A DNA stretch of 64,000 nt from an uncultured Bacteroidales bacterium (GTDB lineage Bacteria; Bacteroidota; Bacteroidia; Bacteroidales; GCA-2748055): the NCBI GenBank assembly GCA_963771005.1, contig CAVYRO010000003.1:868657-932656 (forward strand), in the 5' to 3' direction. Made by a program: the position numbers and the translations under genes. This document shows positions 6,900 through 42,137 of this stretch, in pieces. Position 1 is the first letter of the stretch. Each line of letters opens with the position of its first letter. The notes beneath the pieces are model-generated. The model had not been told where the DNA came from. It worked only from the letters and a program-made list of their open reading frames with translations, and ran no database searches.

Positions 6900-7199
6900 G
6901 GTTTTAAAATTAGTCGTTCGGAACTTGGTAAAGAATAGCAGAGAACCTTAAGGGAATTTCATGCACAAACTCAAAATATTTCAAATACCTCCAATTCAAA
7001 AGTATGCTAATTGGAATTTTAAAAATAATACTAATCAATAGATTATTGATACTTTTATATTGATCCTCATTATTTTGTCCGTTGAAATCTTAAAAATTTC
7101 ATATATAAGTATCATATATTTTGATGTTATTTTATATTGTCATAGATTTATTCCTGTCAGGAACAGTTAAAATCAAAGACACAAATTCTTAATAAAGGA

Positions 7200-8678
7200 A
7201 TGAAGCCGGATTTACTTTTACGGTATGCGGGCCTGATGCTGGCCCTCTTTCTAATTGCCGGCTGCAACCCGATGCCTGACGCAGGTATTCTAAATACGGG
7301 GAAATCTCCCTCCCTTGAACCGGATTATGCCGGAGTCACGGTTCCGGTAAATATTGCCCCTTTAAATTTCCGGATCAGGGGGGAAGGAAAATGGTACAGA
7401 GTGAAAGTCACGTCATCGGCAGGTTATGGATTTTCGCTAATGTCTGCCGGCAGGGATATCCGCTTTCCTGAAAGGCACTGGAAGAGGATGATGAACCAGT
7501 CTGCCGGAGGGTCAGTAACCCTGGAGATTTTCTCAAAAGATGTAAGTAATAAATGGCGGGCATTCAAGCCGGTAAAAATCTTCGTGGCTCCCGAACCGGC
7601 AGATCCATGGCTGTGTTACAGGTTACTTTATCCAGGATACGAGACATGGTCCGAAATCCAGATCATACAGCGAAATATTGAAACTTTCAGGGAATCGATA
7701 CTGGCTGATAACCGGGTAATGAAAAATAATTGCATTAATTGCCACTCCTTCAACGGGAATGACCCGGAAAAATTTCTCCTCCACGTAAGAGGCTCCATGG
7801 GGGGAACTTATTTCGGCAATAAGGACGGAATCACCCGTACCGACCTGAAAACACCTGAGATGAATGCAAGCGCCGTTTATCCTGCCTGGCATCCCGGTGG
7901 CAGGTACGTGGCATTTTCATCCAACAATGTTATCCAGAGTTTCCATGCGGTAAGCAGTAAAAATATTGAGGTTCTGGACCTTGCATCATCACTTTACCTG
8001 TATGATACGGAAATGAACCAGATGGTTCCCGTGAAAGGAAGGGATACCCTTACTTATATGGAAACTTTTCCCGAGTGGTCCCCGGACGGAAACTTCCTGT
8101 ATTTCTGCAGGGCAGATGAATTCGTGAAGGGATCTGATTTCACAACGATAAAATACAACCTGGTCAGAAAATCGTTTGACTCCCGGACTGGATCTTTCGG
8201 GGATGATGAAACCGTATTCAATGCTGCGGCCGCCGGAAAAAGTGTTTCTTTTCCCAGGATATCGCCTGACGGCCGGTTCCTTGTGTATGTACTCCATAAA
8301 TATGGAACTTTCTCGATCTGGCACAAGGAGGCTGATCTTTATCTTCTCGATTTACATTCCGGCAAGATATCCCGTCTGAGATGCAACAGTAATGAATCGG
8401 AAAGTTATCATTCCTGGTCTTCCAACAGCCGCTGGCTCGTTTTCAGCAGCAAAAGGGGAGACGGCCTCACCGCCAGACCGTGGTTTGCCTATATCGATGA
8501 ATCGGGACATGCCCGTAAGCCTTTCGTGCTCCCCCAGAAGGACCCCGGTCTTTACGGACGAATGCTGAAAACTTTTAATAAACCGGAATTTGTTACCGGC
8601 AAGATTGGGTTCACTCCCCGTGATTTTGCAAGGGCGGCAAAAAAAGAACCTTTGAAGGCAGGAAGCCCGGCCAACTAA
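7200..8678 (+). CDS. Lipoprotein with PD40/TolB-like beta-propeller repeats and a single CxxCH motif
   Basis: The lipobox is LIAGCNP. A CINCH (CxxCH) motif sits in NNCINCHSF. PD40-like repeats are WHPGGRYVAFSSN, WSPDGNFLYF, ISPDGRFLVYV and WSSNSRWLVFSS. Confidence 0.6.
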   Translation: MKPDLLLRYAGLMLALFLIAGCNPMPDAGILNTGKSPSLEPDYAGVTVPVNIAPLNFRIRGEGKWYRVKVTSSAGYGFSLMSAGRDIRFPERHWKRMMNQSAGGSVTLEIFSKDVSNKWRAFKPVKIFVAPEPADPWLCYRLLYPGYETWSEIQIIQRNIETFRESILADNRVMKNNCINCHSFNGNDPEKFLLHVRGSMGGTYFGNKDGITRTDLKTPEMNASAVYPAWHPGGRYVAFSSNNVIQSFHAVSSKNIEVLDLASSLYLYDTEMNQMVPVKGRDTLTYMETFPEWSPDGNFLYFCRADEFVKGSDFTTIKYNLVRKSFDSRTGSFGDDETVFNAAAAGKSVSFPRISPDGRFLVYVLHKYGTFSIWHKEADLYLLDLHSGKISRLRCNSNESESYHSWSSNSRWLVFSSKRGDGLTARPWFAYIDESGHARKPFVLPQKDPGLYGRMLKTFNKPEFVTGKIGFTPRDFARAAKKEPLKAGSPAN

Positions 8679-8722
8679 ATTCAGGACTCCTGCATATTTA
8701 ATTTATATCTTATGAGTTTAGT

Positions 8723-10514
8723 ATGAGGATGCCTTCTTTAAAGAAAGATTTTGCCGGGAGATCTGCGGGTACCATAGCAATAGCTTTGATTTTCATTATC
8801 TCATTCATCTTTTTGTACGGATTCCATGATCACCTGTTTTTTTACCAGGAAAACCAGTCATTATTCCTGTTTTCAGGTGATTATCTTCTCGGGTTTACCG
8901 GCAAGCCGGGAGGGATCCTCTTGTATGCCGGCAATTTCTTCACGCAGGGCTACTTCAATGCAATATACGGTTCATTGCTATTATCTGCCGTAATTTCAAC
9001 CTTTGGATTTATACTTTTAAAAATAAATAAAAAGCTTTTCAGGGAAGGTTCTTCCTCCGTACTGCTCACCGTTATTCCCACCTGCCTCCTTCTTTTATTG
9101 CACCTGAACTTTAACTGGCCACTGAGCCATGACCTGGGATTTCTATTGACCGCTGTTTATTTCTACCGGTTGTCAGGTTCTGTCAACCTGACTGGCCGGA
9201 TATTACGTTTTGGCCGGCTTCCCAGCTTTTTATTACCTGGCGGGGGCTTTCGCATGGATCTTTATGGGGATGTATATCATCTTTAGCATCGAAAATGACC
9301 GGAAGCTCCTCCGGTATTCCTACCCGGCGCTTATACTTCTCGCCATTGTCACCTATACTGTTTTCAGGGAATTCATTTTTCTTCAGCCCGACAGCGTCCT
9401 CCTTCTCTCGCCTTTCTCGTTCAGGGATCCTCTGGCGCACATGGTGATTTTTTATCTGCTTTGTGCCGTAGTCATTTCCTTGCCGGTGCTCACAAGGGTT
9501 CTGTCAATAAGTGGAACGAAAGGAAAGTGGATGCGGCTGATTATGCCTTCCTCAATACCAGTGATGTTCCTCATTACTGTCATCCTCCTTGTTATTTGGA
9601 ATGATACAAAGATTGCAAAACTTTTCCGGCTGGAGAAATCCGTATACGAACGTGACTGGGATGCAGTGATCAACGACCAGGAGAAGTACCGCCTGAAAAA
9701 TTTAGTTGCAGAATATTATTATAACCTTGCCCTCGCAGAGAAGGGAGAGCTATGTGACAGGATGTTCCGGTGCCGCCAGGATTTCGGACCTGCCTCCCTG
9801 ATTATTCCCTGGGATTCAAAAATGGGAGCCAACAATATTGACAGGGGTGTTTACTTTTTTTACACAGCCGGACTGATCAATGAAGCCCATCGCTGGGCTT
9901 ATGAGTCAATGGTTGGAAGAGGTTTCCGGCCTGAAAACCTGAAGATGCTGATCAAGACGGATCTTATCAACGGGCATTATACCATGGCTAAAAAATACCT
10001 GGGAATCCTGAAGCAGACGCTGCATTACAGAAGCTGGGCTAAAAAATACGAGAGATTATTGAACCATCCCGGCCTGATCAGCGCTGATCAGGAACTTGGT
10101 GGAAAAATGAAGATCAAACCTGTTAAAGATTTTCAGATAAGCATCCGGAACCCGCAAACCAACCTGCAATTGCTGCTGGATTCCAATCCGTACAATAAGA
10201 CGGCTTTTGAATACCTGATGGCCTGGTACATGCTGGAGAAAAATATTACGACACTGGGCGATGAAGCGGGACGCATGAGAAAGCTCTCATATCCCGGGAT
10301 CCCGCGTCATATCGAAGAGGCTCTCATTATGTACAATATCGGAGCCGGGATGATGCCCGATCTCGGGAGGCTGAAGATCAGCCAGGAGTCTGTAAAACGC
10401 TTCCGTAAATATGAACTTTTCGCAGATCCTGCCCTGGGATTTTTAACAAAAGCCGGTAAAACCATTCCTGCGGAAACCAGGGAAACATTCTGGTATTACT
10501 TTGATTCAAAATGA
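8723..10514 (+). pseudogene. Large polytopic membrane protein with a C-terminal helical-repeat domain (DUF6057-like, from memory), split by a frameshift near 9185-9200
   Basis: ORFs 8723..9286 and 9210..10514 overlap in different frames. Both sides of the junction are hydrophobic TM segments (..FYRLSGSVNL / LAGYYVLAGFPAFYYLAGAFAW..). The second frame is open from 9192. The gene starts 45 bp downstream of the PD40 gene. Confidence 0.5.
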
Positions 10515-10545
10515 GTCCCTGGGAGGGGGCGAATGCCAACCGGAT

Positions 10546-10836
10546 CTATGACCGCAGGTACTCCTTAAGCGTATCAACATATTCTTCAAACTTCTTTTTT
10601 CCAAGGGTTGTCATCCGGCAGACGGTCCGCGGATAATTATCTTTAAAATGTTTATCCACCTCTATATATCCCGCGTCTTTCAACTTATTGATCTGAACGC
10701 TTAAATTCCCCGCTGTTGAGCCGGTCTTCTCTCTGATGAAAGTGAAATCGGCCGATTCTGTGTTCATCAGGATGCTGACGACGGCCAGCCTGAGCTGGGA
10801 ATGCAGGACCGGGTCGAGTGGTTTAAAGGGTTTCAT
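10546..10836 (-). CDS. Winged-helix transcriptional regulator (small, HTH_34/PadR-like)
   Basis: This 96-aa protein contains LDPVLHSQLRLAVVSILMN...FTFIREKTGSTAGNLSVQINKLKDAGYIEV. It overlaps the stop of the upstream membrane-protein gene, an operon-like arrangement. Confidence 0.7.
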   Translation of the reverse strand: MKPFKPLDPVLHSQLRLAVVSILMNTESADFTFIREKTGSTAGNLSVQINKLKDAGYIEVDKHFKDNYPRTVCRMTTLGKKKFEEYVDTLKEYLRS

Positions 10837-11409
10837 GCTCCGCTCTCCTTTTCAGCAGGTAACCCGGAACCAGGTAACCCCCAATCACGGCTGCAGCCAT
10901 AAAAAGAAGTTCATATGAATTCCCTGCAAACCGGGCCGCAATAGCCAGAAGCCAGAACATTACAGCACCGATGATCAGGGGCCTGAATTTTACGATGATC
11001 CCGGAAATAAAAGTCGGGATCCCGGCAAGCATCATGATGAACGGAGTTACATTGGCAAGATTGTCGTTAAGTAGTATGAAAAGAACGATGGCGGCAAAGA
11101 TAAAGGCCATCCATGTCCACATGTACAACCTGTCAGCATAAGTTGAAGCGGTGGATTTCCTCCCCTTCACAAAACCATACACCAGGGAGACAATGACACC
11201 CGGCATGGTGAGAAACCATACATAGTACGGGTGGGTATAGTCCGTAAACCGGTACAGCGCATAAGATGAAAGGCTGCAAAATACAATAAGCCATCCCCAG
11301 AAAAGAAGGTGAAAGCTTCCATGCCTGATATTGGCTTTCGTTTTACTGATCATCTCCGTGATGATGCGGATGCTTTCGGCTCCCGTGAGATCCTGTTCCT
11401 GTGTTTTCA
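10823..11409 (-). CDS. Hypothetical multi-pass membrane protein, co-transcribed with the winged-helix regulator
   Basis: The likely start is MKTQEQDLTG at 11409; the ORF-track start at 11479 adds an implausible leader. The protein has about 5 hydrophobic helices. Confidence 0.5.
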
Positions 11410-11547
11410 TTTCCGTATATATTTGTTTTTTAAAACATAAATAATATCCAAATATAAAGTAGTTTGAAATGTAAACCAAATAATTTAGAAATAGTTCATG
11501 TCCTTACAGAACTTTTCTTAATTTTATTCAAATCAATCCAAACCCTA

Positions 11548-12464
11548 ATGCACACCAGGTTCAGTATTTGTTTCCTGGGCATTTTCATGCTTAATGCCTG
11601 CAGTGACATGCCAAAGACTCGAAGAAAAGCAGATCCGGTTTCGAAATATAAACTTGCCATGGTCCAGATGGATGTAAGGGGAGGGGATCCGGTTCATAAT
11701 CTGGCTGCAGCCTCAGAAAGGATCAGGGAGGCAGCCGGGAACGGGGCACGCATAGCCCTTCTTCCTGAGATGACCGATTTCGGATGGTGTCATTCCTCGG
11801 CAAAGGAAGAGGCCGGACCCGTGCCTGGCGGTGATTCCTTTGAGGCGCTGAGCCGGGCAGCACGGGAAAATAATATATATGTCTGTGCGGGAATCGCCGA
11901 GAAAGACGATGACAGCCTGTATAACACAGCCGTTATCATCGGCCCCCGGGGAGATCTCCTGGCCAAACACCGTAAGCTAAATGAATTGGATTTTGCACAC
12001 GGTCTTTACAGCCAGGGTGATATGCTGAACGTAGCGCATACGGAGCTCGGTACCCTCGGCTTGCTGATCTGTGCCGATGCAAATGCCGACGGGCTTACCC
12101 TTTCCAAATCCCTATGTTACATGGGCGCGGACATCATCCTTTCACCCTGTGCCTGGGCCGTACCCCCGGATATGATAATGTGGCCTCTCCTTATGGCGAC
12201 ACCTGGCGCAATGCCTACGGACCCATAAGCAGGATGTTCGACGTCTGGTTCGTGGGTGTGAGCAATGTCGGGAAGGTGGAAGACGGGGCATGGAACGGCT
12301 GGGATTGCATCGGCTGTTCACTTGCCTACGCGCCCGGTGGGAAAGAGGTGGTACAGGCTCCTTATGGGGTATCAGCCGACACCATTATCTACATCGACGT
12401 AGATCTGCACAAACGTCCCGCAAAGGGAACCAAATGGGGGGAATATATAAGGGATCACCAATGA
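11548..12464 (+). pseudogene. Carbon-nitrogen hydrolase (nitrilase superfamily) lipoprotein, frameshifted in a C5 run at 12163-12167
   Basis: The Glu-Lys-Cys triad context is LLPEM, HRKLN and LLICAD. ORF 11464..12228 reads ..ILSPCAWAVPP and then loses homology. ORF 12114..12464 continues GYDNVASPYGDTWRNAYGPISRMFDVWFVGVSN.. in another frame. The likely start is MHTRFSICFLGIFMLNAC. Confidence 0.75.
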
Positions 12465-12548
12465 TGATTGAATCGTTATCCCTGACAGAGTTCAGAAATC
12501 CTGTCAGGGATAACGATTCACTTATCGGGTTCATACTCCGCTCAAAGC

Positions 12549-12926
12549 TCATGCATCCGGTTTTCCCGCCCGCCACCGCAGTATCGTTACAGCCAACAGC
12601 GAAAATCCGGAAACGATCAACCCATAGCAGGGAAGATAGAAAGAGATCTTCAGACCGGAAATAGCCAGGGCAAACGAGATATCAGCCGCCCTGATGATGG
12701 CATTCAGAGCTGAAATAAAACCTGTAACCTGGGCCAGAATACCTGTGAGGAGAGCAAGTCCTCCCAGATAAAGGATGAGGTCAAGATGTTTCCGCGGCAC
12801 CTCCTTGTGCTTCAGATACCTGCCCAATAGTCTGACTCCCAGTACTACGATGATGATAAGAAGGACCGTGATGACGATCCACCAGGCAATGCCGTTCAGT
12901 ACGATGTCGAGAAATTTTGTTTCCAT
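12549..12926 (-). CDS. Small hypothetical membrane protein (3-4 TM; possibly MotA/ExbB-like)
   Basis: This is a 125-aa hydrophobic ORF. I recognise no diagnostic motif. Confidence 0.4.
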   Translation of the reverse strand: METKFLDIVLNGIAWWIVITVLLIIIVVLGVRLLGRYLKHKEVPRKHLDLILYLGGLALLTGILAQVTGFISALNAIIRAADISFALAISGLKISFYLPCYGLIVSGFSLLAVTILRWRAGKPDA

Positions 12927-13090
12927 GTTGTGATGAATTTAAGGATTAAAAGAGAATCCCGTAAACATTTTCAAACAAGATTATAATACGGGCCGGATTA
13001 TCGCAATTTTATTCGACGCCCTGTACAATATCCGGGTGAAAAATTACCATTCCGGCTTTTTTTGCCATTCCGGCCTGATATCCTGTCAAA

Positions 13091-14184
13091 ATGGGACTTA
13101 AAACATCTGTTCATCTGATTTTTTTTCAAACGACGGGAAAATTGTGCAATTTGCTGAATAAAGTCTGCAGGTTGAAAAAATATGCACCTATAGCGCTTTT
13201 AATCATTTTGAGCTGGGCTGTCCTGTTTTTTATTTACAATTACAGGAATACTGCTTCGCATTACGGAATGCTTATCCCTGGGTTCATGACAGCGGTCGTA
13301 TTGATAAATGCATGGCTGTTCAACTATATTCTTATCCCGGGATACTACTTCAGACGGAAATATATTCCCTTTATTTTCTTCACCCTCTCGGCTGTTATTC
13401 TCAGCACCTGGCTGCAGATGCTTTTTGTGTTCGGACTATACATGAGGCTGAGATTTGAGTTGAACGCCGTTACACCGCGATTACAGGATATTATGGTCAT
13501 CATCTCCAGTACCTGGCTGATCGTTCTCGGGAGCATTGCTATAAGCAAACTTCCGTCCTGGCAGACAATGCAAGGAAACAGGAAGTACTAACCCGGGAGA
13601 AGTATGAAGCGGAGCTCCGGTTGCTTAAATCACAGATCAATCCCCATTTCCTGTTCAATACTCTGAACAGTATATATGTGTTGGCTAAGAAGAAGGCGGA
13701 GGAAACCCCGGAAATGGTCCTCAGACTTTCGCAGATCCTCGATTTCCTACTTTATGAGACCGGTTCTTCACAGGTTGAGATCATCCGGGAAATAGAATTT
13801 ATACGGGATTATATTGAGCTTGAAAAGCTGAGATACGGTAAAAAACTGGAAGTAAGTGTTCAGGTCGATATCCGTGATCCGCAGCGAAAGATTGAGCCGA
13901 TGATCTTCATCCCCCTTGTGGAAAATGCTTTTAAGCATGGGGTGAAAGGGGAGCGAAGGAAAGCCATTGTGCACATTGAGATTTCGGACCGGGATGGGAT
14001 CCGTTTTCACATCCGGAATTCAAAACCCGTAAGCGGGGTACCTGCATCGAAGGGAGGCATTGGGTTAAAGAATCTCCAGAGCCGTCTTGAAAAGATCTAC
14101 GGCGAGGGTTTCCGGATCCGCACAGATGATGCTCCCGGCCTTTACACTGTCGACCTGGAGGTTGTAAAGCCCCAATCCCCTTGA
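13091..14184 (+). pseudogene. LytS-type sensor histidine kinase (His_kinase PF06580 type), frameshifted near 13555-13572
   Basis: The N-terminal TM domain is in ORF 13091..13591. ORF 13621..14184 carries LKSQINPHFLFNTLNSIYVLA and IPLVENAFKHG. The second frame reads back through ..ADNARKQEVLTREKYEAELRLLKSQ, the usual coiled linker, so the two ORFs form one gene. Confidence 0.8.
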
Positions 14185-14246
14185 TATTACTGGGAAGCAA
14201 TTTCATTTGCAGCAAAGAGAAAAATCACTTCATAAAAACGTTGGCA

Positions 14247-14966
14247 ATGCCTTATACATGTATGATCATCGATGATGAACCGCTGGCGATTGAAGCCCTT
14301 GTTGATCACATCACCCGGCTTGACGATTTCACGATCATTGCCAGGTGCAGTGATGCGGTAGAGGCCATACCGCTCGTGAAGAGCGGTAAGCCCGACCTGA
14401 TCTTCCTGGATATTGAAATGCCTGAGCTCAGCGGGCTGGATTTCATCAGGTCGGTTCACAATCCTCCGCGGATCATTCTGACCACAGCATACAGGGATTA
14501 TGCGCCGGAAGCTTTTGACCTTGATGTGGTGGATTACCTGTTGAAACCGGTAAGTTTCCCGCGTTTTCTCAGAGCTGTCAACCGGTTCTATGATTCCTTA
14601 GGATCCTCAAATAAGGATACTGGAAATGTACAGGTTACTGGTGCCGATTACATAAATGTTTACGCTGATAAAAAAACACATAAACTGAAGCAGGAAGAGA
14701 TCCTGTATCTCGAGAGTGTGGGAGATTATGTGGCAATTCATCTCCATAACAAAAAGATACTCACCAGGGAAGGCATATCATCCCTTGAGAAAAAACTTCC
14801 CCGAGAATTATTCATCCGTATCCATAGGTCATTTATCATTTCCCTGGGACATATCGAAAGTTTTGCCAGTTCCGAGGTGGAAATTTCCGGAAAGATACTT
14901 CCGGTGAGCCGGAAATACAGGGATGCTGTATATCGAGTCCTGAATACCGGGAAAAGTAGACTCTAA
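14247..14966 (+). CDS. LytR/AlgR-family response regulator (receiver plus LytTR DNA-binding domain)
   Basis: The receiver domain shows MPYTCMIIDDEPLAIEAL and PDLIFLDIEMPELSG. The LytTR region shows ILYLESVGDYVAIHL...IRIHRSFII. The gene lies directly downstream of the LytS-type kinase. Confidence 0.9.
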   Translation: MPYTCMIIDDEPLAIEALVDHITRLDDFTIIARCSDAVEAIPLVKSGKPDLIFLDIEMPELSGLDFIRSVHNPPRIILTTAYRDYAPEAFDLDVVDYLLKPVSFPRFLRAVNRFYDSLGSSNKDTGNVQVTGADYINVYADKKTHKLKQEEILYLESVGDYVAIHLHNKKILTREGISSLEKKLPRELFIRIHRSFIISLGHIESFASSEVEISGKILPVSRKYRDAVYRVLNTGKSRL

Positions 14967-15063
14967 TGATCTTTTCGATCGTACCGTTAAGAACAGGAGG
15001 GTCACATTATCTGTCGGTAAGGGAAAGGTTAGGCTTCGCTCACCGACCGGGGAACTGCCACAA

Positions 15064-15913
15064 GAATTTGTTGAGTTGTTGAGTTGTTGAGTTGTTGATT
15101 GAAGAGATTCTACGTAGTACTGAATTTGTTGAGTTGTTGAGTTGTTGAGTTGTTGATTGAAGAGATTCTACGTAGTACTGAATTTGTTGAGTTGTTGAGT
15201 TGTTGAGTTGTTGATTGAAGAGATTCTACGTAGTACTGAATTTGTTGAGTTGTTGAGTTGTTGAGTTGTTGATTGAAGAGATTCTACGTAGTACTGAATT
15301 TGTTGAGTTGTTGAGTTGTTGAGTTGTTGATTGAAGAGATTCTACGTAGTACTGAATTTGTTGAGTTGTTGAGTTGTTGAGTTGTTGATTGAAGAGATTC
15401 TACGTAGTACTGAATTTGTTGAGTTGTTGAGTTGTTGAGTTGTTGATTGAAGAGATTCTACGTAGTACTGAATTTGTTGAGTTGTTGAGTTGTTGAGTTG
15501 TTGATTGAAGAGATTCTACGTAGTACTGAATTTGTTGAGTTGTTGAGTTGTTGAGTTGTTGATTGAAGAGATTCTACGTAGTACTGAATTTGTTGAGTTG
15601 TTGAGTTGTTGAGTTGTTGATTGAAGAGATTCTACGTAGTACTGAATTTGTTGAGTTGTTGAGTTGTTGAGTTGTTGATTGAAGAGATTCTACGTAGTAC
15701 TGAATTTGTTGAGTTGTTGAGTTGTTGAGTTGTTGATTGAAGAGATTCTTACGTAGTCCTGAATTTGTTGAGTTGTTGATTTGTTGATTGAAGAGATCCT
15801 TACGTAGTCCTGAATTTGTTGAGTTGTTGATTTGTTGATTGAAGAGATTCTTACGTAGTCCTGAATTTGCTGAGTTGTTGATTTGTTGATTGAAGAGATT
15901 CTCACGTGGTCCT
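15064..15913. repeat. 58-bp minisatellite: 11 identical copies (15064-15701) plus 4 variant copies of 59, 51, 51 and 51 bp
   Basis: The unit is GAATTT(GTTGAGTT)3GTTGATTGAAGAGATTCTACGTAGTACT. Unit starts fall at 15064, 15122, 15180 ... 15644, a constant 58-bp phase visible as a 2-nt shift per 60-nt line. Later units change to ..CTTACGTAGTCCT and replace one GTTGAGTT with GTTGATTT. Confidence 0.95.
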
Positions 15914-16299
15914 GAATTTGTTAAGGCTGCGCTCACCGAGCGGGACCCTGACTTGAAATGAATTATGGTTCGGCTTCCCTCAACATTTCGGTAATCTTTG
16001 CATTGAAAAGTCATCATATTATAATCTGGTGAAGTCATACCTTCGTTTAAGCGCATAGTTTGGGCTTCTTCCTTTGTAATACGTCTTAGTATCAACTGGG
16101 ATCCACCCCCACCGTCGACGCCGACCGCCCTTAATGGGATTCACCCCCCAAATCTCAGCGTCCCCTTTTTGACTTTTTGATGAAAAGTTATCAACACTAC
16201 AGATTATCAGTACGTTGGATAACCCCGAACTCATTGTTTTGGTGATTTGGTGAAGTGGAAGAGGAACGCGGATTTGACGGAAAAATACGAATCCCGGAA

Positions 16300-16410
16300 G
16301 AATTTGTTGATTTGTTCGATTTGTTGCGTTGTTGATTGAAGAGATTCTTACGTAGTCCTGAATTTGTTGAGTTGTTGATTTGTTGATTGAAGAGATTCTC
16401 ACATGGTCCT
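16300..16410. repeat. Two further degenerate copies (60 and 51 bp) of the 58-bp unit, ending in the same junction as the main array
   Basis: The sequence reads GAATTTGTTGATTTGTTCGATTTGTTGCGTTGTTGATTGAAGAGATTCTTACGTAGTCCT followed by GAATTTGTTGAGTTGTTGATTTGTTGATTGAAGAGATTCTCACATGGTCCT. Both arrays terminate in GAATTTGTTAAGGCTGCG(C/T)TCACCG. Confidence 0.85.
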
Positions 16411-16448
16411 GAATTTGTTAAGGCTGCGTTCACCGGCCGGGGAACTGC

Positions 16449-16585
16449 CTTTAAATGAAGAACGGTTCGGCTACGCTCAGCGGCTGGCGTTCTATCTTTA
16501 AATGAGGAACGGTTCGGCTACGCTCAGCGGCTGGCGTTCTATCTTTAAATGAGGAACGGTTCGGCTACGCTCACCGACCGGGGGC
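16449..16585. repeat. 47-bp tandem repeat (about 2.9 copies) carrying the core GGTTCGGCTACGCTCA
   Basis: CTTTAAATGA(A/G)GAACGGTTCGGCTACGCTCAGCGGCTGGCGTTCTAT occurs at 16449 and 16496, with a partial copy at 16543. Related cores (GGCT[ATG]CGCTCA) occur at about 15034, 15925, 15978, 16425 and 16607. Confidence 0.85.
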
Positions 16586-16641
16586 CTACGATTAGTGAGG
16601 TATGTTTCGGCTACGCTCAACATTCAGGCACACGGTCCCGC

Positions 16642-17472
16642 TCAACTCCTCTTCACATGGCTGTACTTTATGATCGCCACGAATACGATGCCACCTATCG
16701 CATTCCCGATGGTCGCCCAGAACTGGAAACGGAGATATCCAGCGAAAGTTATGGACTTGCTGCAGAGCATCCCTGTGAAGACCTCAATGGATCCGACGAT
16801 GGAATGGTGCAGGCCTCCCAGGCCGATGAGAAAGGTCACCAGAATGATAATAAAGATACGGCTTATGGTATCCTGCGAGGAGGTAACCAGCCAGGAAAGG
16901 ATTCCCATGAGCCATCCGGCGCCGATACTGCTGCCCAGGATGACACTCCAGTTGTAATTTATCCTCGTCTGTGCCAGGAAGGTGAATGATTCCCTGCTGA
17001 CAGATTCCATGACGGGTGCAAAATCACCTACGACGAGGGCAAAGATATAGCCTCCCAGGAGATTACCTGCGTAGATGATGCCCCACAGGATGAGAAGATC
17101 CTTTACGCCGGCCGATCTGTTCAGGACGGGAAGTACGGCAAGCGTGGTATGTTCGGTGAATAGTTCGGAACGGCCCAGGGTCACAAAGATAAAGCCCACC
17201 GGGTAGGCCAGCGCCATCAGGAGCACAAGGTTCTGGGGGGAAACTACCCCGGCATACATGTGATGAAGGATCCCCATCAGGTAAACGCTGAAGCCTATCT
17301 CAAGTCCTGCAGCGAATGCCGAAAGCAGGAGCCCGAACTTCGATCGCCGGTATTCCCGCATACCCAGTTCGATCTCCTCCTTAAGGATCTCACCTTCCGT
17401 TTTTGGCTTCTGCATCTCTTCCCTGAGCGCATGTCCTTCTTCTTTCTTTACCAGGTTCCTGAATGATACCAT
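16642..17472 (-). CDS. Formate/nitrite transporter (FNT) family protein
   Basis: This 276-aa protein has about 6 TM segments. FNT-like motifs are TLGRSELFTEHT, IIYAGNLLGGY and ATIGNAIGG. Confidence 0.8.
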   Translation of the reverse strand: MVSFRNLVKKEEGHALREEMQKPKTEGEILKEEIELGMREYRRSKFGLLLSAFAAGLEIGFSVYLMGILHHMYAGVVSPQNLVLLMALAYPVGFIFVTLGRSELFTEHTTLAVLPVLNRSAGVKDLLILWGIIYAGNLLGGYIFALVVGDFAPVMESVSRESFTFLAQTRINYNWSVILGSSIGAGWLMGILSWLVTSSQDTISRIFIIILVTFLIGLGGLHHSIVGSIEVFTGMLCSKSITFAGYLRFQFWATIGNAIGGIVFVAIIKYSHVKRS

Positions 17473-17613
17473 GGGTTGCTTTTTTCATGTATTTGAAAAA
17501 CAATATTCCGTTCTTTCAGAAACAGTAAAACGAATTGGGTACGAAGAAGGTTTATGGGCCCGGGAGAATTGCGGATTCCGCGATCCGGAATCCCGTTTTT
17601 GGGGAAAAGTGAT

Positions 17614-18186
17614 TCAATCTGATTTCCTGATGTATGTCAGCCCGGTAACTCCGCACCGGAATTGCCGGGTTCCGGTAAGCCCAAGGTTCATTCGCTCCCG
17701 GATATTTTTAAACAGGGGTATACCCATTCCGAGGATCACCGGGTTGATATTGATCCTGTATTCGTCGATCAGGTCTGACTGGATAAGTGCATGGGTGACG
17801 GAAGCGCTGCCGATAAGCAGTATATCCCCGCCGTCTTCTTTCTTAAGGGCAGATACAACCCCGTCAATATTGCCGTCATAGAATACCGTATTATTCCAGT
17901 CGGAGGTCAATACCGTTTTGGAGAAAACCATTTTCCGGGCTTTGTTGACCCAGGCAGCATGTTCTTTATCATGCCGCGACGCGCCGGTACTTTCACCTGC
18001 GGTAGGCCAGTAGCTTTCCATCATCTGGAAGGTAATCCTTCCATAAATTACAGTGTCGGCTCCCTGCGTCAGGGATGATGAGTAATCACCCATCTCCTCA
18101 TCAAACAGGATCCAGTCCATTTCACCTGTTGGTCCTGCAATGAAACCATCCAGTGAGGTGTGCATAAGCAGCTTAAGTTTCTTCAT
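17614..18186 (-). CDS. Dihydrofolate-reductase-like protein (RibD C-terminal domain family)
   Basis: The N-terminus reads MKKLKLLMHTSLDGFIAGPTGEMDW. Further matches are ..VIYGRITFQMMESYWP.. and ..ILLIGSASVTHALIQSDLIDEYRININPVILG. Confidence 0.8.
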   Translation of the reverse strand: MKKLKLLMHTSLDGFIAGPTGEMDWILFDEEMGDYSSSLTQGADTVIYGRITFQMMESYWPTAGESTGASRHDKEHAAWVNKARKMVFSKTVLTSDWNNTVFYDGNIDGVVSALKKEDGGDILLIGSASVTHALIQSDLIDEYRININPVILGMGIPLFKNIRERMNLGLTGTRQFRCGVTGLTYIRKSD

Positions 18187-18197
18187 AATACTGTGTT

Positions 18198-18767
18198 TCA
18201 GGAAGATAATTTTTTATAATTCAGAAGAACGACCCCGCATGGGAAGGCAATGCTCCTGACGGATTTTAATTTTAACCGGTCAGAAAAAACCGGGAGGCCT
18301 TTTCCGGCACCGAGGGTTACCGGATTGATGAAGAGAAAATACTCATCAATGAGATTGCGTGATGCCATGGAAGATGCCAGGCCGCTCCCACCGTAGAGAA
18401 TTATATCTCCCGGACCTGTCTCTTTCAACTTCCGTACTTCCTCGTCCAGATCGCCGGTTGCCAGGGCGGTATTCTGCCAGGGTGATTTATCCAGCGTTTT
18501 GGTAAAGACGACTTTTGGCGTATCAACCATCTTCTTCCCGAATTCGTACTCTGGGTTTGCCGGATCGCTTGCAACGTCAGTCCAGTATGAGACAAAGCCT
18601 TCCGTCATTTTCCGGCCCAGGAGGATGCATTCAACGGGTTTTGTCAGTTCGCTGACGAAGGATTTGAGCTCATCATCCCAGTCCCACACCATCCAGTCCA
18701 GTTCGCCGTTTGGTCCTCCGCAATACCCATCTACGGTGAGTTGCATCTGCAATTTTAAAGTTCTCAT
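18198..18767 (-). CDS. Dihydrofolate-reductase-like protein (RibD_C family), tandem paralog
   Basis: The likely start is MRTLKLQMQLTVDGYCGGPNGELDW at 18767. The ORF-track start at 18827 only extends into a (TTTGTTGA)n repeat run, giving the artefactual leader FIQQINKSTNQQI. Confidence 0.8.
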   Translation of the reverse strand: MRTLKLQMQLTVDGYCGGPNGELDWMVWDWDDELKSFVSELTKPVECILLGRKMTEGFVSYWTDVASDPANPEYEFGKKMVDTPKVVFTKTLDKSPWQNTALATGDLDEEVRKLKETGPGDIILYGGSGLASSMASRNLIDEYFLFINPVTLGAGKGLPVFSDRLKLKSVRSIAFPCGVVLLNYKKLSS

Positions 18768-18940
18768 GTCTGAGTTAAGAATTTGTTGATTTGTTGATTT
18801 ATTGATTTGTTGAATGAATTCGATCATCTCCTCAAAATATGTTTTTCTCCGGGTTTCCGGAAGAAATTGAGGATTTGATGAATAGCCGCTTGCATAGTAT
18901 TACATTCATCTCGTTCTAAAGTCCGGGCATACCAGGTGGA

Positions 18941-19384
18941 TCAAAACCATGTGGCCCAGGAATGGAGGAAAGGCCACGGGATAAAGAGGAAAATCAGGAT
19001 CAGGCCGATGCTGAAGAAAATAGCAACACGTCTGAATTTATCAGGATCGGTCTCCTTTTTCAGCGATGTCCGGTAACCCATATTCACCAGGGTGATGGCA
19101 ATGAACATGCCGATAAGGTGAATGATCCCGAAGAAAAAGATCATTCCGGAGGCTCCGGAAAGATTTCCCCAGGCTGCATAGTCCCCTTTCAGAAAGTAAA
19201 GTACGAGGCCCAGCAGCATCTGGAAATTCAGGAACCCGGTGGTTGCCAGGAAAAGCCGGCGCCTGGCTTTTGAAAATCCCCGGTGATTAACAAGGCCGCC
19301 ATAGGCGGAAATGATGGAGATGATCAAAAGGATAAGAGCGATGTAGCGTATCGCAGAATGCAGATCGAGTAAACCGGTAATCAT
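18941..19384 (-). CDS. Hypothetical 4-TM membrane protein
   Basis: This is a 147-aa hydrophobic ORF with no recognised motif. Confidence 0.5.
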   Translation of the reverse strand: MITGLLDLHSAIRYIALILLIISIISAYGGLVNHRGFSKARRRLFLATTGFLNFQMLLGLVLYFLKGDYAAWGNLSGASGMIFFFGIIHLIGMFIAITLVNMGYRTSLKKETDPDKFRRVAIFFSIGLILIFLFIPWPFLHSWATWF

Positions 19385-19514
19385 CGCAGGTATTTTTTAA
19401 GGTTAGAACTACTTCTTCCGGGGCACGATCAGCGGTTTAATTTCTTAACGATACCCGGATTTTCAGGAAACAAGGATAAGTAACAATTGTTTAGCCGGAC
19501 CGGTAATGAGGGAA

Positions 19515-19692
19515 TGAAGAATTTGGAGTACTGTTTGAGATTGTTTGAGATTGTTTGAGATGGTTTGAAAGAAGAGGAACGCGGATTTGACGGATTTTGA
19601 CGGATTCCGGTAGCTATCGGAACGGATTTTGGATAGTTGACTCTTCATTCACCAAATCACCAAATCACCAAATATTCTTCATCCGCGTTCTA
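19515..19692. repeat. Mosaic intergenic repeat element (10-mer run, D module with hairpin, 8-mer run)
   Basis: The order is (TTGTTTGAGA)x3 plus TGGTTTGAAA, then GAAGAGGAACGCGGATTTGACGGATTTTGACGGA. Next comes the palindromic TTCCGGTAGCTATCGGAA, then (TCACCAAA)x3. The element closes with ATCCGCGTTC, the inverted complement of GAACGCGGAT. Confidence 0.85.
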
Positions 19693-21849
19693 TTCCCCTC
19701 TATAAACCTTCACTTCAATACCCGAAGGCCTCACCCTATCATGGTAAATGCGTTGGGTGGCGCGAATAAAATCCCCTTCACCGCAATGATAAATATCGGT
19801 AAACTGCTGTGGATTCCGGTCCACGAGCGGGAACCATGAATTCTGGACCTGTATCATGATCCTGTGTCCTTTCTGAAAACAATGCGCAATATCCGGCATC
19901 TCAAAGGATACCCGGGTCACCTCTCCCGGAGTAAAAGCTTCCGGTTTTTCATAGCTATTCCTGAATTTTCCGCGCATAACATCGCCCCTGATCAACATCT
20001 CGTAACCGCCCGAAGGGACCATGCCGTTTTCACCCGGCTTCATTCTCAGGTTCAGGGGGAAAGACGTCGATGAGCTTAACTACATAGTCTGCATCTGTCC
20101 CTGAAGTGCTAACATAAAGATCCACGTTGAGCGGACCCGTTAGCGTTAGGGATTTCGTGAGAGGCTGTGATTCATAGACCAATACGTCCGGCCTGCTGGA
20201 AGCAAATCTCTGGTCTGCAGTCATATAATCTGCTGTTCTTTTAAAATGGACGCCGGCAACATAAGGAACGGGATTTTCCGGATCAGAGACATATTCGTCA
20301 TAGCTTTCGGCAGAGTGGGGCGGTGTGAAGGAAAGACTTCCTCCGGGTTGAAGGTATAGAACAGAATCCGTCGTATTCCTGGGAGGCCATTCTGAGAAAG
20401 AATGCCAGTCGTTTGTCCCGCTTATAAAGACGGAAGCTTCCGGGAGATCCATTTTTCCTTCATCCTTCATGATAGAAGTTGAAGAATTTCATTTGCAGCT
20501 GGTTGAAATAATCCGTTGTATTCTCACCCCAGGAAACGTCGCCCAATTGCTCACCGGCACTCTTAGCCCACTGGTGATGAGACCATGGCCCCATTATGAG
20601 CCGGTTACTTTTCCCGGAGTTCTGGGACTCAATGGTTTTATAAGTCTGCAAAGTCCCAAACAAGTCCTCAGCATCATACCAGCCCCCGACAACAAGCACC
20701 GCAGGACGGAGATCACTGAGGTACCGCAGGGGATTTCTGGCTTTCCAGAATTCATCATAGACAGGATGATCCATCATCTCCGACCAGAACCGTACCGTAT
20801 CGCCGAAATATTTTTTCTCAGCGTTGCGGATGGGGCCCAGATCCAGGAAAAACCGGTAATTATCGCTGCTTTTGAACTCATATGTTCCAGGCCATTCCCG
20901 GATAAGACCGTGCCGGGGAATGCCAAAGGCCGAATAAAAGGAGAAGGCATCCGAAAGAAAGAAGGCCCCATGATGGTGCCAGTCGTCGCCCATGAACCAG
21001 TCGGTGACGGGAGCCTGTGGAGAGACGGCCTTCACTGCGGGATGTGCATCCGGCAGTGCCATGGTAGAGTAGAAACCCGGATAGGATACCCCCATGATTC
21101 CAACCCTGCCGTTATTATTTTTTACATTTTTTACCAGCCAGTCTACAGTGTCCCAGGTATCGCTGCTCTCATCCGTTTCCTTCCTCTTTTTCAGTTCGAT
21201 ATAAGGTCTGACATCCACGAAGGTTCCTTCACTCATGAACCTTCCTCGCACATCCTGCAAAACGATGATATATCCCTCCTCCAGGAAATGGGAATATTCG
21301 GAAAGCATACTCGAAAAGCCCGTTTCCGATGTTTCGATACGGTAAGGTGTACGGGTAAGGATTATGGGATAGTAATTCAAATTGCTTTTGGGGGAATAGA
21401 TGGAAGTATACAGACGGACTCCGTCTCTCATGGTGATGTAGACGTCCTTTTTGTCATACTGTGTCCTGATGAAAGTCGTATCCTTCCAGTCGACTGTAGA
21501 ATCCTGCCTTGTAAAATCGACTTTATATTTTACCCCGGACTGTGTCATACTACCGGTGATCAGGGCCGCTTTTTCTTCATACCGGCCCCTGTAGGTCAGC
21601 CCGCCCTGCCGCCAGAAAAAGTAAAACTGATTTCCGGTGAGGGAGATGCTGTCAAGTGAGATAGCATACGCATTCTGGTCCGGGCTGTCGAAATCACCTG
21701 AGAGCTTGTAGCCATCTGCCCGGATATGGAGGTTCAGGTGAAGTTCGGGACCCTTCAGGAGGGCATTCCAGTCGCCGGTTATGTCCTGCGCTGCGGCCGG
21801 GAATAGAATGAAGGCCAATAGAACCAGGAATATGAATGTTCTTTTTCAT
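19690..21849 (-). pseudogene. CocE/NonD-family (S15, X-Pro dipeptidyl-peptidase-like) hydrolase, interrupted by three frameshifts
   Basis: Three consecutive ORFs (20460..21818, 20030..20470, 19690..20043) together form one S15 protein, with nucleophile context GVSYPG and C-terminal domain MLIRGDVMRGKFRNS. The junctions are at about 20466 (FFNFY / KDEGK) and in a G5/C5 run at 20055-20059. The signal peptide MK(K)RTFIFLVLLAFILFPAAAQ is restored only if the T5/A5 run at 21842-21846 is shortened by 1 nt, starting from the ATG at 21849. Confidence 0.8.
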
Positions 21850-22152
21850 TGCTTAATGGAAACGTGACCATGTGTGGATTCTTAAAAAATAACCGCGGTT
21901 CTGCAAAACCAGGAACCAAAATACAAAGAAAAAGCATGGAAATAATCCTTGTGACCGGCCAAATTCATTTTTCAGATAACAAGAAACAAGCTTTCCCGGT
22001 TCAGGAAGTTCCGATTACCCGGGGTGGGAAGGAATTAAACCCAGAAAATCCTTGCAAGTCCGGTTTTTCCTTCATAGTTTCATTCCGCAATTCATCATCC
22101 ATACCTGTAATAATAAATCAGCATTACCTGAAGTAATAAATAGCCTGTAACC

Positions 22153-23563
22153 ATGAAAACCACCAATCAACTCCTGGCATATTTGTCCATCGGGCTGGCC
22201 GCGACGGCAGGAAGCTGCACAACGGTTGACAGGGAACCCGGCAAACCCAATATTGTCATCATCTTCCTCGATGATTCCGGATGGTCTGATTTCAATCCCT
22301 TTACAAAAAACGATTACCCAACACCCAATGTCGACCGGCTGGCTTCGGAGGGAACCCGTTTCCAACAGTTTTACGTACCGCAGGCCATCTGTTCCGCCTC
22401 GAGGGCGGCCCTTCTGAGCGGGTGTTATCCCGGGCATACGGGCGTCACCGGAGCTCACGGTCCAGGCGCGCTGGGTCTCGATCCGAAATTCGCCACCCTC
22501 GGTGAGGTGCTGCAGAAGGACGGGTATGCAACGGCAGTCTTCGGGAAATGGCATATCGGCGATCAACCGCAAACGCATCCCTGGAACCGCGGTTTCGATG
22601 AATCGTGCGGACTGATGTACTCGAACGATATGTGGCGGTTTCATCCTGAGAACCCGGAGAAATGGGGAGAACATCCGCTGCAATTCTGGGAGAACGATTC
22701 TGTGAGTATTGCGGATGTGGATTCGGCCGACCAGAAAATGCTTACTACCTGGTATACGGAACATGCGGTCAACTTCATCAACAGGCATAAAGACGGACCT
22801 TTTTTCCTGTATGTTCCCCACAATATGCCCCATGTGCCGATTTTCTGCAGCGATAAGTTTGAAGGCAAATCCGGGAAGGGAAGATATGCCGATGTGATCA
22901 TGGAACTTGACTGGTCGGTGGGTGAGATTACAAAAGCCCTGCGGGAAAACGGGCTGGAGAAGAATACAATGGTGGTCCTCACCTCCGATAATGGCCCCTG
23001 GATCGTTTATGGCAACCATGCCGGCAGGACGCCGTTCCGGGAAGCAAAGGGAACTTCATTCGACGGTGGGACACGTTCCGCATGTATCGTAAAATTTCCC
23101 GGGAACGTCCCTGCTGGAAAAGTCTCAGACCAGGCTTTCTGCACCATCGATCTTCATGCCGACGATCTGTCACATTACGGGAGCTGAACTGCCATCCAAT
23201 CCCATCGACGGGATGGATGTGACAGACCTCGTCATGTCGAAGAAAGGAGCTGTAAATCCTCATGATTACTATGCTTTTTCAACCGGAAAGCAATTCGAGG
23301 CCGTGATGAGTGGCGACGGGCACTGGAAGCTTCATCTTCCGCACGATTACCGTACTCTTGGGATAGCCGGCAAAGACGGGATGCCAGGCCGTTACCGGCA
23401 GGATGAGATCGGATTGTCGCTCTTCGATATGGTCAATGACCCCAATGAAACGGAAAATGTGATAGGTAAGTACCCGGAGATCGCTGAAAAGCTGGAAGGG
23501 TACGCCCGGAAACACAGGGAGATGTATTATGCAATGGAGGAGAAAGAAGAAGCGCTTCAGTAA
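22153..23563 (+). pseudogene. Formylglycine-type sulfatase, frameshifted near 23150-23156
   Basis: Conserved sulfatase motifs are NIVIIFLDDSGW, CSASRAALLSGCYP (C-x-A-x-R) and FGKWHIG. ORF 22153..23187 reads ..AFCTIDL and ORF 23156..23563 continues MPTICHITGAELP in another frame. The usual sulfatase junction is TIDLMPTI, which implies one extra C in CTTCATGCC. Confidence 0.9.
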
Positions 23564-23583
23564 TGTTAATGCAGAACATGGAT

Positions 23584-23820
23584 GGACGCGGTTTAATTGT
23601 ATGAAATGGTTTGAAATGGTTTGAAATGGTTTGAAATGGTTTGAAATGGTTTGAGGTTGTTTGAACTCAATTCACCAAATAGTCTTCATCCGTGATTATC
23701 CGCACAAATCCGTCAAATCCGTGTTCTTCTTCCTCTTCCTCCCCAACTTCACCAAATCACCAGATCACCAAATTCTTCGGGGAGTTTCACCACAGATTTC
23801 ACAGATTATCACAGATTAGC
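23584..23820. repeat. Mosaic intergenic repeat element between convergent genes
   Basis: The order is (ATGGTTTGAA)x5, then TCACCAAAT, then ATCCGTGATTATCCGCACAAATCCGTCAAATCCGTGTTC (D module, reverse orientation). It finishes with TCACCAAATCACCAGATCACCAAA and TTCACCACAGATTTCACAGATTATCACAGATTA. Confidence 0.85.
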
Positions 23821-23845
23821 GGAAGATGATGCTCCCGTCCTTGAT

Positions 23846-25499
23846 CTAAGGGTTGGCGCTGCCTGTTTCCGGGTAAAAAGGTAGATGGCTCACCCGGTTA
23901 TACCGGAATGGTTTAAATACTTCTATTAATTCGTTTTCCTTACAAGTGAATGTATCCAGTGGTTCCCCGAGTAAATTTTTTATAGTTTCTTCCGCTATAT
24001 CATCCTTTATAATAAAGGTAAATTCCCGAGAGGTTTTTTTTGAACCATCTTCAACGTAATACCAGTTTTCATTCATGACATGATAATAAGGCTTAAGATC
24101 CGTATATACGCTGAAAATACGCAGTCCCTCTTTTGAGAACATGCTGATCAGTTTGCCATCCCAGTAGTTTCCCACCCCATTTTTCAATGAATGTTCCCTC
24201 GCGAGTCGATCCATACAGGCTACCTTTTCCGGATAGTAATGCAGCAATTCATTCATTCCGGCCTTTATATTTTCTTTCCGGAATTCATGATAAACGAAGA
24301 CAGTTCCCGAAAGCAGAAGTACTGCAGGAACAATGAACATTACCGTTCGTCTCCCGGGCAATACTTCGGATAACTTATAAAGCAGGTAGCCGAAACTGAA
24401 TATTCCGAAGTAAAGACTATATACATTATATCTCAATATATCCCATCCTGAGTAACTTCCGTTAATGATGGGCATTACCACCGTTGAAACAGTTATAACC
24501 ACAAATAGAAGCAGGTATATCAGTTCAGCCATCGGGACATCCTCATTTTTGAAAAATGAGATCAATTTTCGCACAAGAAATGTGGAATGAAGGATGAGAC
24601 TCAACAGGAAAAGCAGGTCGATGAGTGCCCGGAAATCGTATTGTGAAAGGTAGAAAGAATGCTGTTCTGAAAACATTGCAAGTGAAGGGACGATCTGGTC
24701 GAAGCTGAAAATTCTCCACGATAATCCCATGATCCGGATCGGGGAATTGAATCTCAGGAGGGTGAATAAGGGAAGGGCTACACCTATAGACAAGACATTT
24801 GTTGCCAATATCTTATAAAGTCCGGCCCGGTAGGGCGTATTCCTGAAGAGTAAAATGCCCAGGGCAAATACCGGTATGGAAAAAATGGCCATGAAAAGCC
24901 GGTCGTTTATGATGGCTACAACAGAAATTATGAACAAAATCACAAGAGCAGAGAACCGGTTCTTTCTGAGAAACCGGATCAGGAAAATGAGAGCGGCAAG
25001 GGTCATCAGGAATGCGCTCAGATGATAACCGATGCTTACGATATAAAATGTGTAACTGAAATCATGATTCACAATTCCAGCCAGCAGGAAGAGGGACATG
25101 AGCATTATCCCGGTTGTGAGAAACCTTGCATCGAGATTCTCAAAAAAACTCCTGTATACCATACATCAGAAGCAACATCAACAGGATAAATTCCAGGAAG
25201 CTGTATGTGAGCATAGCGGGGATGAACGAATTAAAAAAGATTTGGATGATGAAATACATGATCATATCGGGGAAAATATTCGGGGCCCCGTTCAGGTGCC
25301 ATCCGGCAAAGCTGTTTCCATCGATGAAAAGATCATGGTAAATTGACGGAACATACAGCGTGTCGGAATTGAAATAAACCGGGATCTGATCCTCCCTGAT
25401 CGTTGCAAAAAGAATGATGCAAAGAAGAATATTAATCATAAAGGCAACCGGTAAAATAATTCCCGGACCGGATCGTGGTAGCAGGCTGCGATAGGACAT
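23846..25499 (-). pseudogene. Large hypothetical polytopic membrane protein (about 550 aa), frameshifted near 25150-25160
   Basis: ORFs 25140..25499 and 23846..25162 overlap by 23 nt in different frames. Both are strongly hydrophobic and contiguous (..LLLMYGIQEFF / ..YRSFFENLDARFLTTGIML..). Confidence 0.5.
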
Positions 25500-41875: not shown

Positions 41876-42005
41876 GGCTTTTTTTTTGGTGACCTGGTAT
41901 TACCGGGTGACTTTAAATCGGTACGAATGTACTACAATGTAACAAGCTCTTCAATCAACAAATCAAAAAATTCTTCAGGTGACGGTGCGTGTGGTCTTCT
42001 TGCCC

Positions 42006-42137
42006 GGGCGTAACCTTACCATGGGCATAACCTTACCATGGGCGTAACCTAACCACAGGCATAACCTACCACGGGCGTTACCTAACCACGGGCGTAACCT
42101 TACCACGGGCGTAACCTTACCACGGGCGTAACCGTGG
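42006..42137. repeat. 17-bp tandem repeat, about 7.8 copies
   Basis: The unit GGGCGTAACCTTACCAC and variants start at 42006, 42023, 42040, 42058, 42073, 42090, 42107 and 42124. The array is preceded at 41950-41985 by TCAACAAATCAAAAAATTCTTCAGGTG, the 8-mer/junction motif of the main family. Confidence 0.9.

Follow-up and report, generated by a model that had tools for sequence, protein, structure and literature searches.

The stretch of DNA considered here, a window of 64,000 nucleotides from an uncultured Bacteroidales bacterium, carries a minisatellite with a 58-bp unit in the non-coding gap between two convergently transcribed genes. The gap lies between the two stop codons and measures 1,675 bp (14967-16641). 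On one side, a His_kinase open reading frame (ORF) precedes a LytTR-family response regulator gene, and the array begins 97 nt downstream of the stop codon of the latter. On the other side lies a gene for an FNT (formate/nitrite transporter) protein, and a protein identical to its product is P0001. These flanks, described in the initial annotation as a LytS/LytTR pair and a convergent FNT gene, and the limits it gave for the gap agree with the Pfam assignments and the coordinates (Table 1). Its account of the array as eleven perfect copies followed by four variants also holds, as does its description of the unit as three octamers and a palindrome, to which one further octamer can be added.

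Tandem Repeats Finder places the array at 15064-15889, with a period of 58, 14.5 copies, 97% matches and a score of 1471. Splitting the array sequence on the motif GAATTTG delimits fifteen units, of which eleven are 58 bp, one is 59 bp and three are 51 bp long. The full 58-bp unit reads GAATTTGTTGAGTTGTTGAGTTGTTGAGTTGTTGATTGAAGAGATTCTACGTAGTACT. It opens with GAATTT, continues with three copies of the octamer GTTGAGTT and one of GTTGATTG, and closes with AAGAGATTCTACGTAGTACT; each such unit contains the palindrome CTACGTAG. The last of the three 51-bp units carries CTCACGTGGTCCT. The unit is thus made up of two parts, the octamer microsatellite and a unique segment of 26 nt, GATTGAAGAGATTCT(T)ACGTAGT(A/C)CT. 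A pattern for the unit core gives 17 matches in the window versus none in 100 dinucleotide-preserving shuffles. The 26-nt segment was not found outside this gap in the window and the related loci, and it has no match in JGI metagenomes or in IMG/VR. A scan of 185,579 GTDB representative genomes with the unit core returned 12 single matches only, which are non-repetitive, mostly evidently within coding sequence, and attributable to chance. A clustered regularly interspaced short palindromic repeat (CRISPR) array is rejected, the units abutting directly with no spacers.

Table 1. Features of the gap that holds the array and of its flanking genes (positions in the window).
Feature	Position	Strand	Remarks
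LytTR-family response regulator gene	14181-14966	+	Pfam Response_reg and LytTR; ortholog in L014 at 10443-11162
Leader module M6	15032-15059	+	GGCTTCGCTCACCGACCGGGGAACTGCC; small GC-rich hairpin-forming element directly before the array; kept in L014
Eleven identical 58-bp units	15064-15701	+	638 bp; derived type, differing from unit 12 by delT and C>A
Unit 12, 59 bp, ancestral type	15702-15760	+	reads CTTACGTAGTCCT; 2 substitutions from the single L014 unit
Three 51-bp variant units	15761-15913	+	each minus one octamer; GATTT replaces GAGTT
Tail 1	15914-15960	+	truncated unit start GAATTTGTTAA, then M6 hairpin module GGCTGCGCTCACCGAGCGGGACCCTGAC
Unique central core of the gap	16025-16240		best-conserved ~170 nt ~97% identical to L014
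Second mini-array	16300-16410	+	two units (60 and 51 bp) of the same family as the 58-bp array
Tail 2	16411-16448	+	truncated unit start and M6 module, as in tail 1
47-bp x2.7 tandem repeat	16449-16573	+	M6-type hairpin modules; families D4 and D5
FNT gene	16642-17472	-	Pfam Form_Nir_trans; convergent with the regulator gene

In a collection of about 15 billion proteins, the locus was found in two genomes only, both of them metagenome assemblies: that of the window and a close relative, contig_60615 of ENA assembly ERZ25039483 (L014), which was reached via P0121, a cluster-mate of the FNT protein. L014 is collinear with the window over 5794-24863, and the aligned segments share 88.6-98.1% nucleotide identity, with 98.1% over 9.3 kb on the regulator side of the gap and 95.7% over 1.9 kb on the FNT side. 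The orthologous gap of L014 measures 830 bp. At the position of the array it holds exactly one unit, preceded by the same leader and set between near-identical flanks; this unit has four octamers and ends in ...CTTATGTAGTCCT. Because a single unit occupies the same site between near-identical flanks in L014, the array represents a recent local amplification. With its head-to-tail units of 58, 59 or 51 bp (n=15) and a copy number of 15 in the window versus 1 at the orthologous locus, the array fully fits the generic definition of a bacterial variable-number tandem repeat (VNTR), or minisatellite. The initial annotation had proposed it as a candidate for contingency-type copy-number variation. 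The variation is evident from the 15 units in one genome and the single unit in the other, whereas the contingency type is unsupported, because the array sits between convergent 3' ends rather than in a promoter or coding sequence, no on/off switch is apparent, and no downstream ORF has family support.

The order of the unit types indicates how the array grew. Units 1-11 share two derived changes, the loss of a T (delT) and a C>A change, and unit 12 resembles the unit of L014; therefore the FNT-proximal variant units are old, and the homogeneous block is the newest part of the array. The polarity that had earlier been read from the graded divergence of the units is thereby upheld, the variant units being the ancestral types and the eleven identical ones derived. 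Across the 638 bp of the identical block there are 0 substitutions, as opposed to the 12-27 expected at the flank divergence of 1.9-4.3%. Thus, either most of the divergence between the window and L014 had already accrued when the amplification took place, or the units are actively homogenised. Very recent amplification or ongoing homogenisation had already been put forward, and the tails behind the unit blocks point to gene conversion. Family D2 aligns 15811-15982, which covers the last two units of the array and their tail, with 16308-16479, which covers the second mini-array and its tail, at 87% identity. Both tails of the window read GAATTTGTTAAGGCTGCG..., and both tails of L014 (10170-10290 and 9640-9715) read ...ATCACCCGGTCA...TTTTACGGTTCGGCTGC... 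Tails that are alike within a genome and unlike between genomes are a signature of gene conversion, here between sites about 500 bp apart, and the comparison suggests that the two unit sites of the gap evolve in concert.

The array is likely to be a non-coding VNTR that arose by very recent tandem amplification of a composite intergenic module, single-copy in the ancestor. It is probably neutral and the product of slippage or unequal recombination. The single unit of L014 is bordered by GAAT... on its left and GAAA... on its right, a microhomology that could seed a first duplication via slipped-strand mispairing; the series of events would begin with such a duplication at GAA(T/A). The 51-bp units differ from the 58- and 59-bp units by exactly one octamer, as expected from out-of-register slippage on the internal microsatellite, and this would be the second step. 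One unit would then have gained the two changes (delT and C>A), and replication slippage or unequal recombination would have multiplied this variant into the 11 identical units at the end nearest the response regulator gene. The first and second unit sites would be kept alike by gene conversion between them. We infer slippage or recombination as the mechanism of amplification, and an array that serves no dedicated function and is tolerated since nothing essential lies between the two gene ends.

The remainder of the gap is built partly from related material. The M6 element recurs after every unit block, as judged from pattern matches and folds, and within the 64 kb it is restricted to this gap. 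The second mini-array and the 47-bp repeat, both missed by the initial annotation, lie on the FNT side of the central core, and the 47-bp repeat has a degenerate additional copy at ~16596-16624. In L014, the place of the second mini-array is taken by an unrelated sequence of about 100 nt, ggttgcgccgtgcaagtccgtgaggtagggactcaaaggcggatc... (9780-9880, reverse strand). A hidden non-coding RNA in the central core (~16025-16240) was considered and rejected, its ~97% identity to L014 being the genomic background and its fold z-scores of -0.46 and -1.08 not being significant on either strand. Upstream of the regulator gene, a deletion of 1 nt near 13542, outside any homopolymer, breaks the LytS-type histidine kinase gene (13091-14184) into two ORFs; the kinase gene of L014 is intact and encodes 305 aa. 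The split gene is either a pseudogene or the result of a sequencing error.

Searches for coding sequence and for structured RNA returned little from the gap, in line with the earlier view that it is free of genes. No frame stays open through the perfect array; the longest open stretches measure 57 aa (minus strand) and 21 aa (plus strand). No ORF in the gap has a significant Pfam match, the only hit being a sub-threshold one to AAA_8 (E 0.035, 13.8 bits) in a 173-aa ORF, and no gene is called in the gap of L014. A coding reading is rejected on these grounds. Rfam 15 gives no match at gathering thresholds across the whole window, and none at E up to 10 in 14900-16700. Folded as DNA, the 58-nt unit has a minimum free energy of -0.4 kcal/mol (z +0.46) and no significant fold; in the minus-strand RNA, pairing is limited to the CTACGTAG palindromes of adjacent units. 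No inverted repeat of at least 14 nt occurs in 14900-16700. The hairpin character of repetitive extragenic palindromes and bacterial interspersed mosaic elements (REP/BIME) is likewise absent, since the unit is not a stable hairpin and the small GC hairpins are confined to the flanking M6 modules. A scan for sigma-70-type promoters and terminators stayed at or below shuffle expectation, bar two terminator-like hairpins on the plus strand, both in copies of the 47-bp repeat beside the FNT gene.

The consensus sequences most pertinent to the neighbourhood were also compared with the array. LytTR regulators reportedly bind paired 9-bp direct repeats of the form [TA][AC][CA]GTTN[AG][TG] that lie 12-13 bp apart. 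The array contains no such half-site, one occurs at 14983, and no pair with an 11-14-nt spacer exists anywhere in the window; a LytTR operator reading is therefore rejected on consensus. The sigma-A promoter of Bacteroidetes is said to consist of TTG, a spacer of 17-21 nt (~19) and TAnnTTTG. An exact TAnnTTTG is absent from the gap on either strand, and a promoter of this type is likewise rejected on consensus.

Several points weigh against the reading of the array as a neutral, recently amplified VNTR. The plus-strand RNA of a unit dimer gives a weak GU-paired hairpin (z -1.9). All 17 units carry TTG-N19/20-TGAATTTG, one base short of TAnnTTTG; the mismatch falls on the A of that motif, which is presumed critical, and the near-consensus promoter may serve as a lead, not as evidence. 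Both derived changes create perfect palindromes, turning CTTACGTAG into CTACGTAG and AGTCCT into AGTACT. The two new palindromes may have arisen by chance; alternatively, they could mark a site of binding or modification, with selection for binding, not drift, behind the changes. A missing detectable motif, moreover, does not prove missing function. Lastly, the exact copy number and the perfect identity come from two metagenome assemblies and could reflect assembly or consensus polishing.

These points lead to the alternatives, of which a regulatory array fares best and is nonetheless unlikely. Its units would be protein-binding sites or weak promoters, for instance LytTR operators or an antisense row of sigma-A-type promoters directed toward the FNT gene, and their copy number would tune transcription or termination between the convergent genes. 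The proximity of the array to the LytTR gene, the near-consensus promoter in each unit and the palindromes made by the derived mutations are consistent with such a role. Precedents exist in the promoter activity of BrickBuilt elements (PMC4596501) and in the BOX modules that affect expression (PMC3049150). Set against these are the absence of exact promoter motifs, of LytTR half-sites within the array and of correctly spaced pairs in the window, to which may be added that the 8-bp phase of the octamers does not fit the 21-22-bp spacing of LytTR sites. One unit suffices in L014, and loci with no relation to this one carry identical octamer modules. In the window genome the cognate kinase gene has a frameshift, which could also be a sequencing error and which argues against a finely tuned regulatory role of the adjacent array in that genome.

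It is improbable that the unit is real while the 15 copies and the perfect identity of 11 of them stem from mis-assembly or consensus polishing. Perfectly identical units are the expected outcome of polishing a tandem array. However, the array occupies only 850 bp inside a 1.0-Mb contig, and the contig size together with the 'contig_N' naming of related ENA assemblies suggests a long-read assembly in which single reads would span the array. The variant units also form an ordered, interpretable series, which assembly errors rarely make, and both the rest of the window and independently assembled relatives contain similar arrays.

The array has parallels across the window. The initial annotation treated the array as an isolated oddity; it is instead the most extreme instance of a wider family of modular intergenic repeats that the annotation had missed. 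In total, 18 tandem-repeat blocks cover 3,978 of the 64,000 bases (6.2%), and octamer or decamer modules occupy about 8 intergenic loci. The repertoire comprises octamer arrays (ATTTGTTG, TTTGGTGA and GTTGAGTT), which nearly always start with GAAGAATTT; decamer arrays (GTTTGAAATG and GGTTGTTTCA); a triple decamer, CACAGATTTCACAGATTATCACAGATT; and the block GGAACGCGGATTTGACGGATT. Because its octamers are shared with other loci, the 58-bp unit is to be seen as a composite of an octamer array and the 26-nt segment. Searches of the literature returned no paper on the octamer and decamer sequences. The SusC/SusD genes of the window assign it to Bacteroidota, and its GlnRS narrows the assignment to an uncultured Bacteroidales lineage: it shares 73-77% identity with the best named matches, 'MAG: Bacteroidales bacterium' (metagenome-assembled genome) entries, 70% with Tangfeifania and 80-82% with relatives on long contigs.

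Two of these loci are themselves higher-order arrays. Octamer, decamer and triple-decamer modules together form a 110-bp x4.6 array at 51904-52405 (98% matches), which has a reverse-oriented relative of 114/122 bp x3.3 at 35858-36257. The region around the former (51882-52476) is bracketed by a 21-nt inverted repeat, AATGTAGAACACGGATCCGGA / TCGGAATTCGTGTTCTACATT. Unrelated intergenic arrays lie at 42005-42662 (17 bp x7.6, CGGGCGTAACCTTACCA; 153 bp x3.2; and CTTTTTA x3.7), and an intergenic 252-bp x2.1 repeat lies at 31745-32267. For the arrays at 36, 42 and 52 kb, the neighbouring proteins have no second-strain cluster-mates for strain comparison.

Some of the modules differ in copy number between close genomes. 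At 23602-23665, the decamer array of the window exceeds its L014 ortholog by one copy. Orthologous arrays of the octamer CACGTACC, between a peptidase S15 gene and a sulfatase gene with near-identical flanks, number ~22 copies in L013 (10634-10807) versus ~6 in L015 (15415-15461) and L016 (~7700), all on contigs from one ENA assembly. Two relatives at ~80% GlnRS identity carry arrays of their own: L017 has a 112-bp x12.2 minisatellite (5395-6767), and L019 has AGTTAGGA x10 and TCAACAAA x6.5 arrays (11745-11825 and 12017-12068), the latter ending 4 nt ahead of the start codon of a UDG gene.

Two further sites concern modules beside genes. At 19532-19696, the window holds a 165-bp module block where L014 (5136-6923) has 1.8 kb with a Glyco_hydro_10 gene and different modules. 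Since the two genomes diverge right after a shared GAAGAATTTGGA, the module block marks a gene presence/absence breakpoint. At 18534-18815, the likely start of a RibD_C gene is closely preceded by an octamer array (ATTTGTTG x4). L014 (7659-7720) lacks about 200 nt beside the octamer array, and its RibD_C gene is called with 110 aa, compared with 209 aa in the window.

The triple decamer (module CACAGATT) is widespread. It gives 47 exact 27-mer matches in metagenome contigs (loci L020-L066) with ~30 distinct flanking contexts, from sources that include human gut, soil and freshwater. A crude ORF call places 43 of 48 occurrences between genes, and the module often has an inverted partner at a distance of 45-65 nt. 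Within the window it lies at ~23786-23816, at 35740-36180 (five copies), at 40290 and 40420, at 51970-52330 (four copies, reverse) and at 63435. Variants near it keep the architecture with other sequences, namely CACGGATT x3, CACAAATT x3 and CACGAATT x3. No description of the module was found in the literature. A broader view, which we offer tentatively as a possibility, is that the array is a runaway amplification within an undescribed modular intergenic repeat system common to the Bacteroidota, whose modules would be short arrays of octamers or decamers with conserved boundaries, such as GAAGAATTT-(GTTGATTT)n and CACAGATTTCACAGATTATCACAGATT.

Dispersed modules might also recall a transposable element, and the array would then be the internal tandem module of an inserted non-autonomous element resembling MITEs (miniature inverted-repeat transposable elements) or a BOX element, with leader, repeats and tail, mobilised in trans; this is very doubtful, for although M6 modules bracket the unit blocks, the octamer part with its conserved GAAGAATTT boundary recurs at about 8 loci, one module block coincides with the breakpoint noted above, and ~30 metagenomic contexts with no relation to one another contain the triple decamer (module M3) as an exact 27-mer, often in inverted pairs, terminal inverted repeats are lacking from the gap, the M6 modules around the unit blocks are direct rather than inverted, and the 26-nt segment is confined to this gap and, bar the chance matches, absent from the databases searched. 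The element stands at the same site in both genomes, so there is no empty site or target-site duplication to compare.

Several known repeat systems resemble the array in part. Mycobacterial interspersed repetitive unit VNTRs (MIRU-VNTRs), and other VNTRs used for typing bacteria, are intergenic tandem arrays of 40-100-bp units whose copy number is polymorphic between close strains and which mostly have no known function. MIRUs sit within operons, and some encode short in-frame peptides; in contrast, the present array lies between convergent genes and is closed in all frames. The array shares its general design, a non-coding modular intergenic repeat with a tandem middle module that varies in number, with the BOX elements of Streptococcus pneumoniae (Croucher et al. 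2011, PMC3049150). In BOX elements (boxA-boxB(n)-boxC), longer boxB arrays vary more between strains, slippage or unequal crossover being the attributed cause, and the boxA/boxC and boxB modules influence the expression of downstream genes (PMC3049150). However, the boxA and boxC ends of BOX are inverted and pair in RNA, and more than 100 copies are dispersed, whereas the modules beside the present array are direct repeats, its unit does not fold significantly and the unique segment is found in one gap; there is also no sequence similarity, and the phylum is different.

A closer relative by lineage is BrickBuilt, a MITE/minisatellite of Porphyromonas gingivalis with a 23-nt unit, 19 loci and 1-22.8 copies according to locus (Klein et al. 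2015, PMC4596501), segments of which have measured bidirectional promoter activity (PMC4596501). Both are found in Bacteroidales, in intergenic sequence, as a spacerless tandem unit with a leader and a tail and a copy number that varies between strains. BrickBuilt has small terminal inverted repeats, whereas the present array has a 58-nt unit with an octamer microsatellite, one locus and no inverted repeats. Heptamer repeats, namely the short tandemly repeated repetitive (STRR) sequences of cyanobacteria and TAACTGA in Beggiatoaceae, Cyanobacteria and Bacteroidetes, form intergenic arrays genome-wide (MacGregor 2015, PMC4679880), and some Bacteroidetes have long arrays that are absent from close relatives with identical gene neighbourhoods (PMC4679880). 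The octamer and decamer modules described here, and the contrast between the window and L014, are akin to these arrays of 7-10-nt units. Unlike them, with their one simple heptamer that often stands just upstream of start codons, the array is a 58-bp higher-order repeat between the 3' ends of genes.

Measured against composite MITEs of the BOX and BrickBuilt type, the array has the variable internal module (1 versus 15 copies) and lacks the terminal inverted repeats. Its octamer part with the GAAGAATTT boundary is dispersed in the window, and the dispersal of the whole leader-unit-tail structure is judged from 64 kb only. The array works like such elements and belongs to none of them, having no shared sequence, no terminal inverted repeats and no dispersed unique segment.

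Taken alone, the array is of limited significance: it provides a strain-typing marker ready for use (1 versus 15 copies) in an uncultured Bacteroidales lineage, and it shows cleanly how one composite module can give rise to a minisatellite. In practice, such arrays can also mislead short-read assembly and gene callers, the latter because spurious ORFs run through them. The wider pattern is of modules that change copy number between near-identical strains, evolve in concert and coincide with gene presence/absence breakpoints. If a modular repeat system of this kind does extend across the Bacteroidota, its modules would act as hotspots for recombination and for gene gain or loss, and the exact conservation of the triple decamer would imply a conserved DNA- or RNA-binding partner or horizontal mobility. 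Should this one widely conserved module indeed have a binding partner or be mobile, it would represent a new class of bacterial intergenic element.

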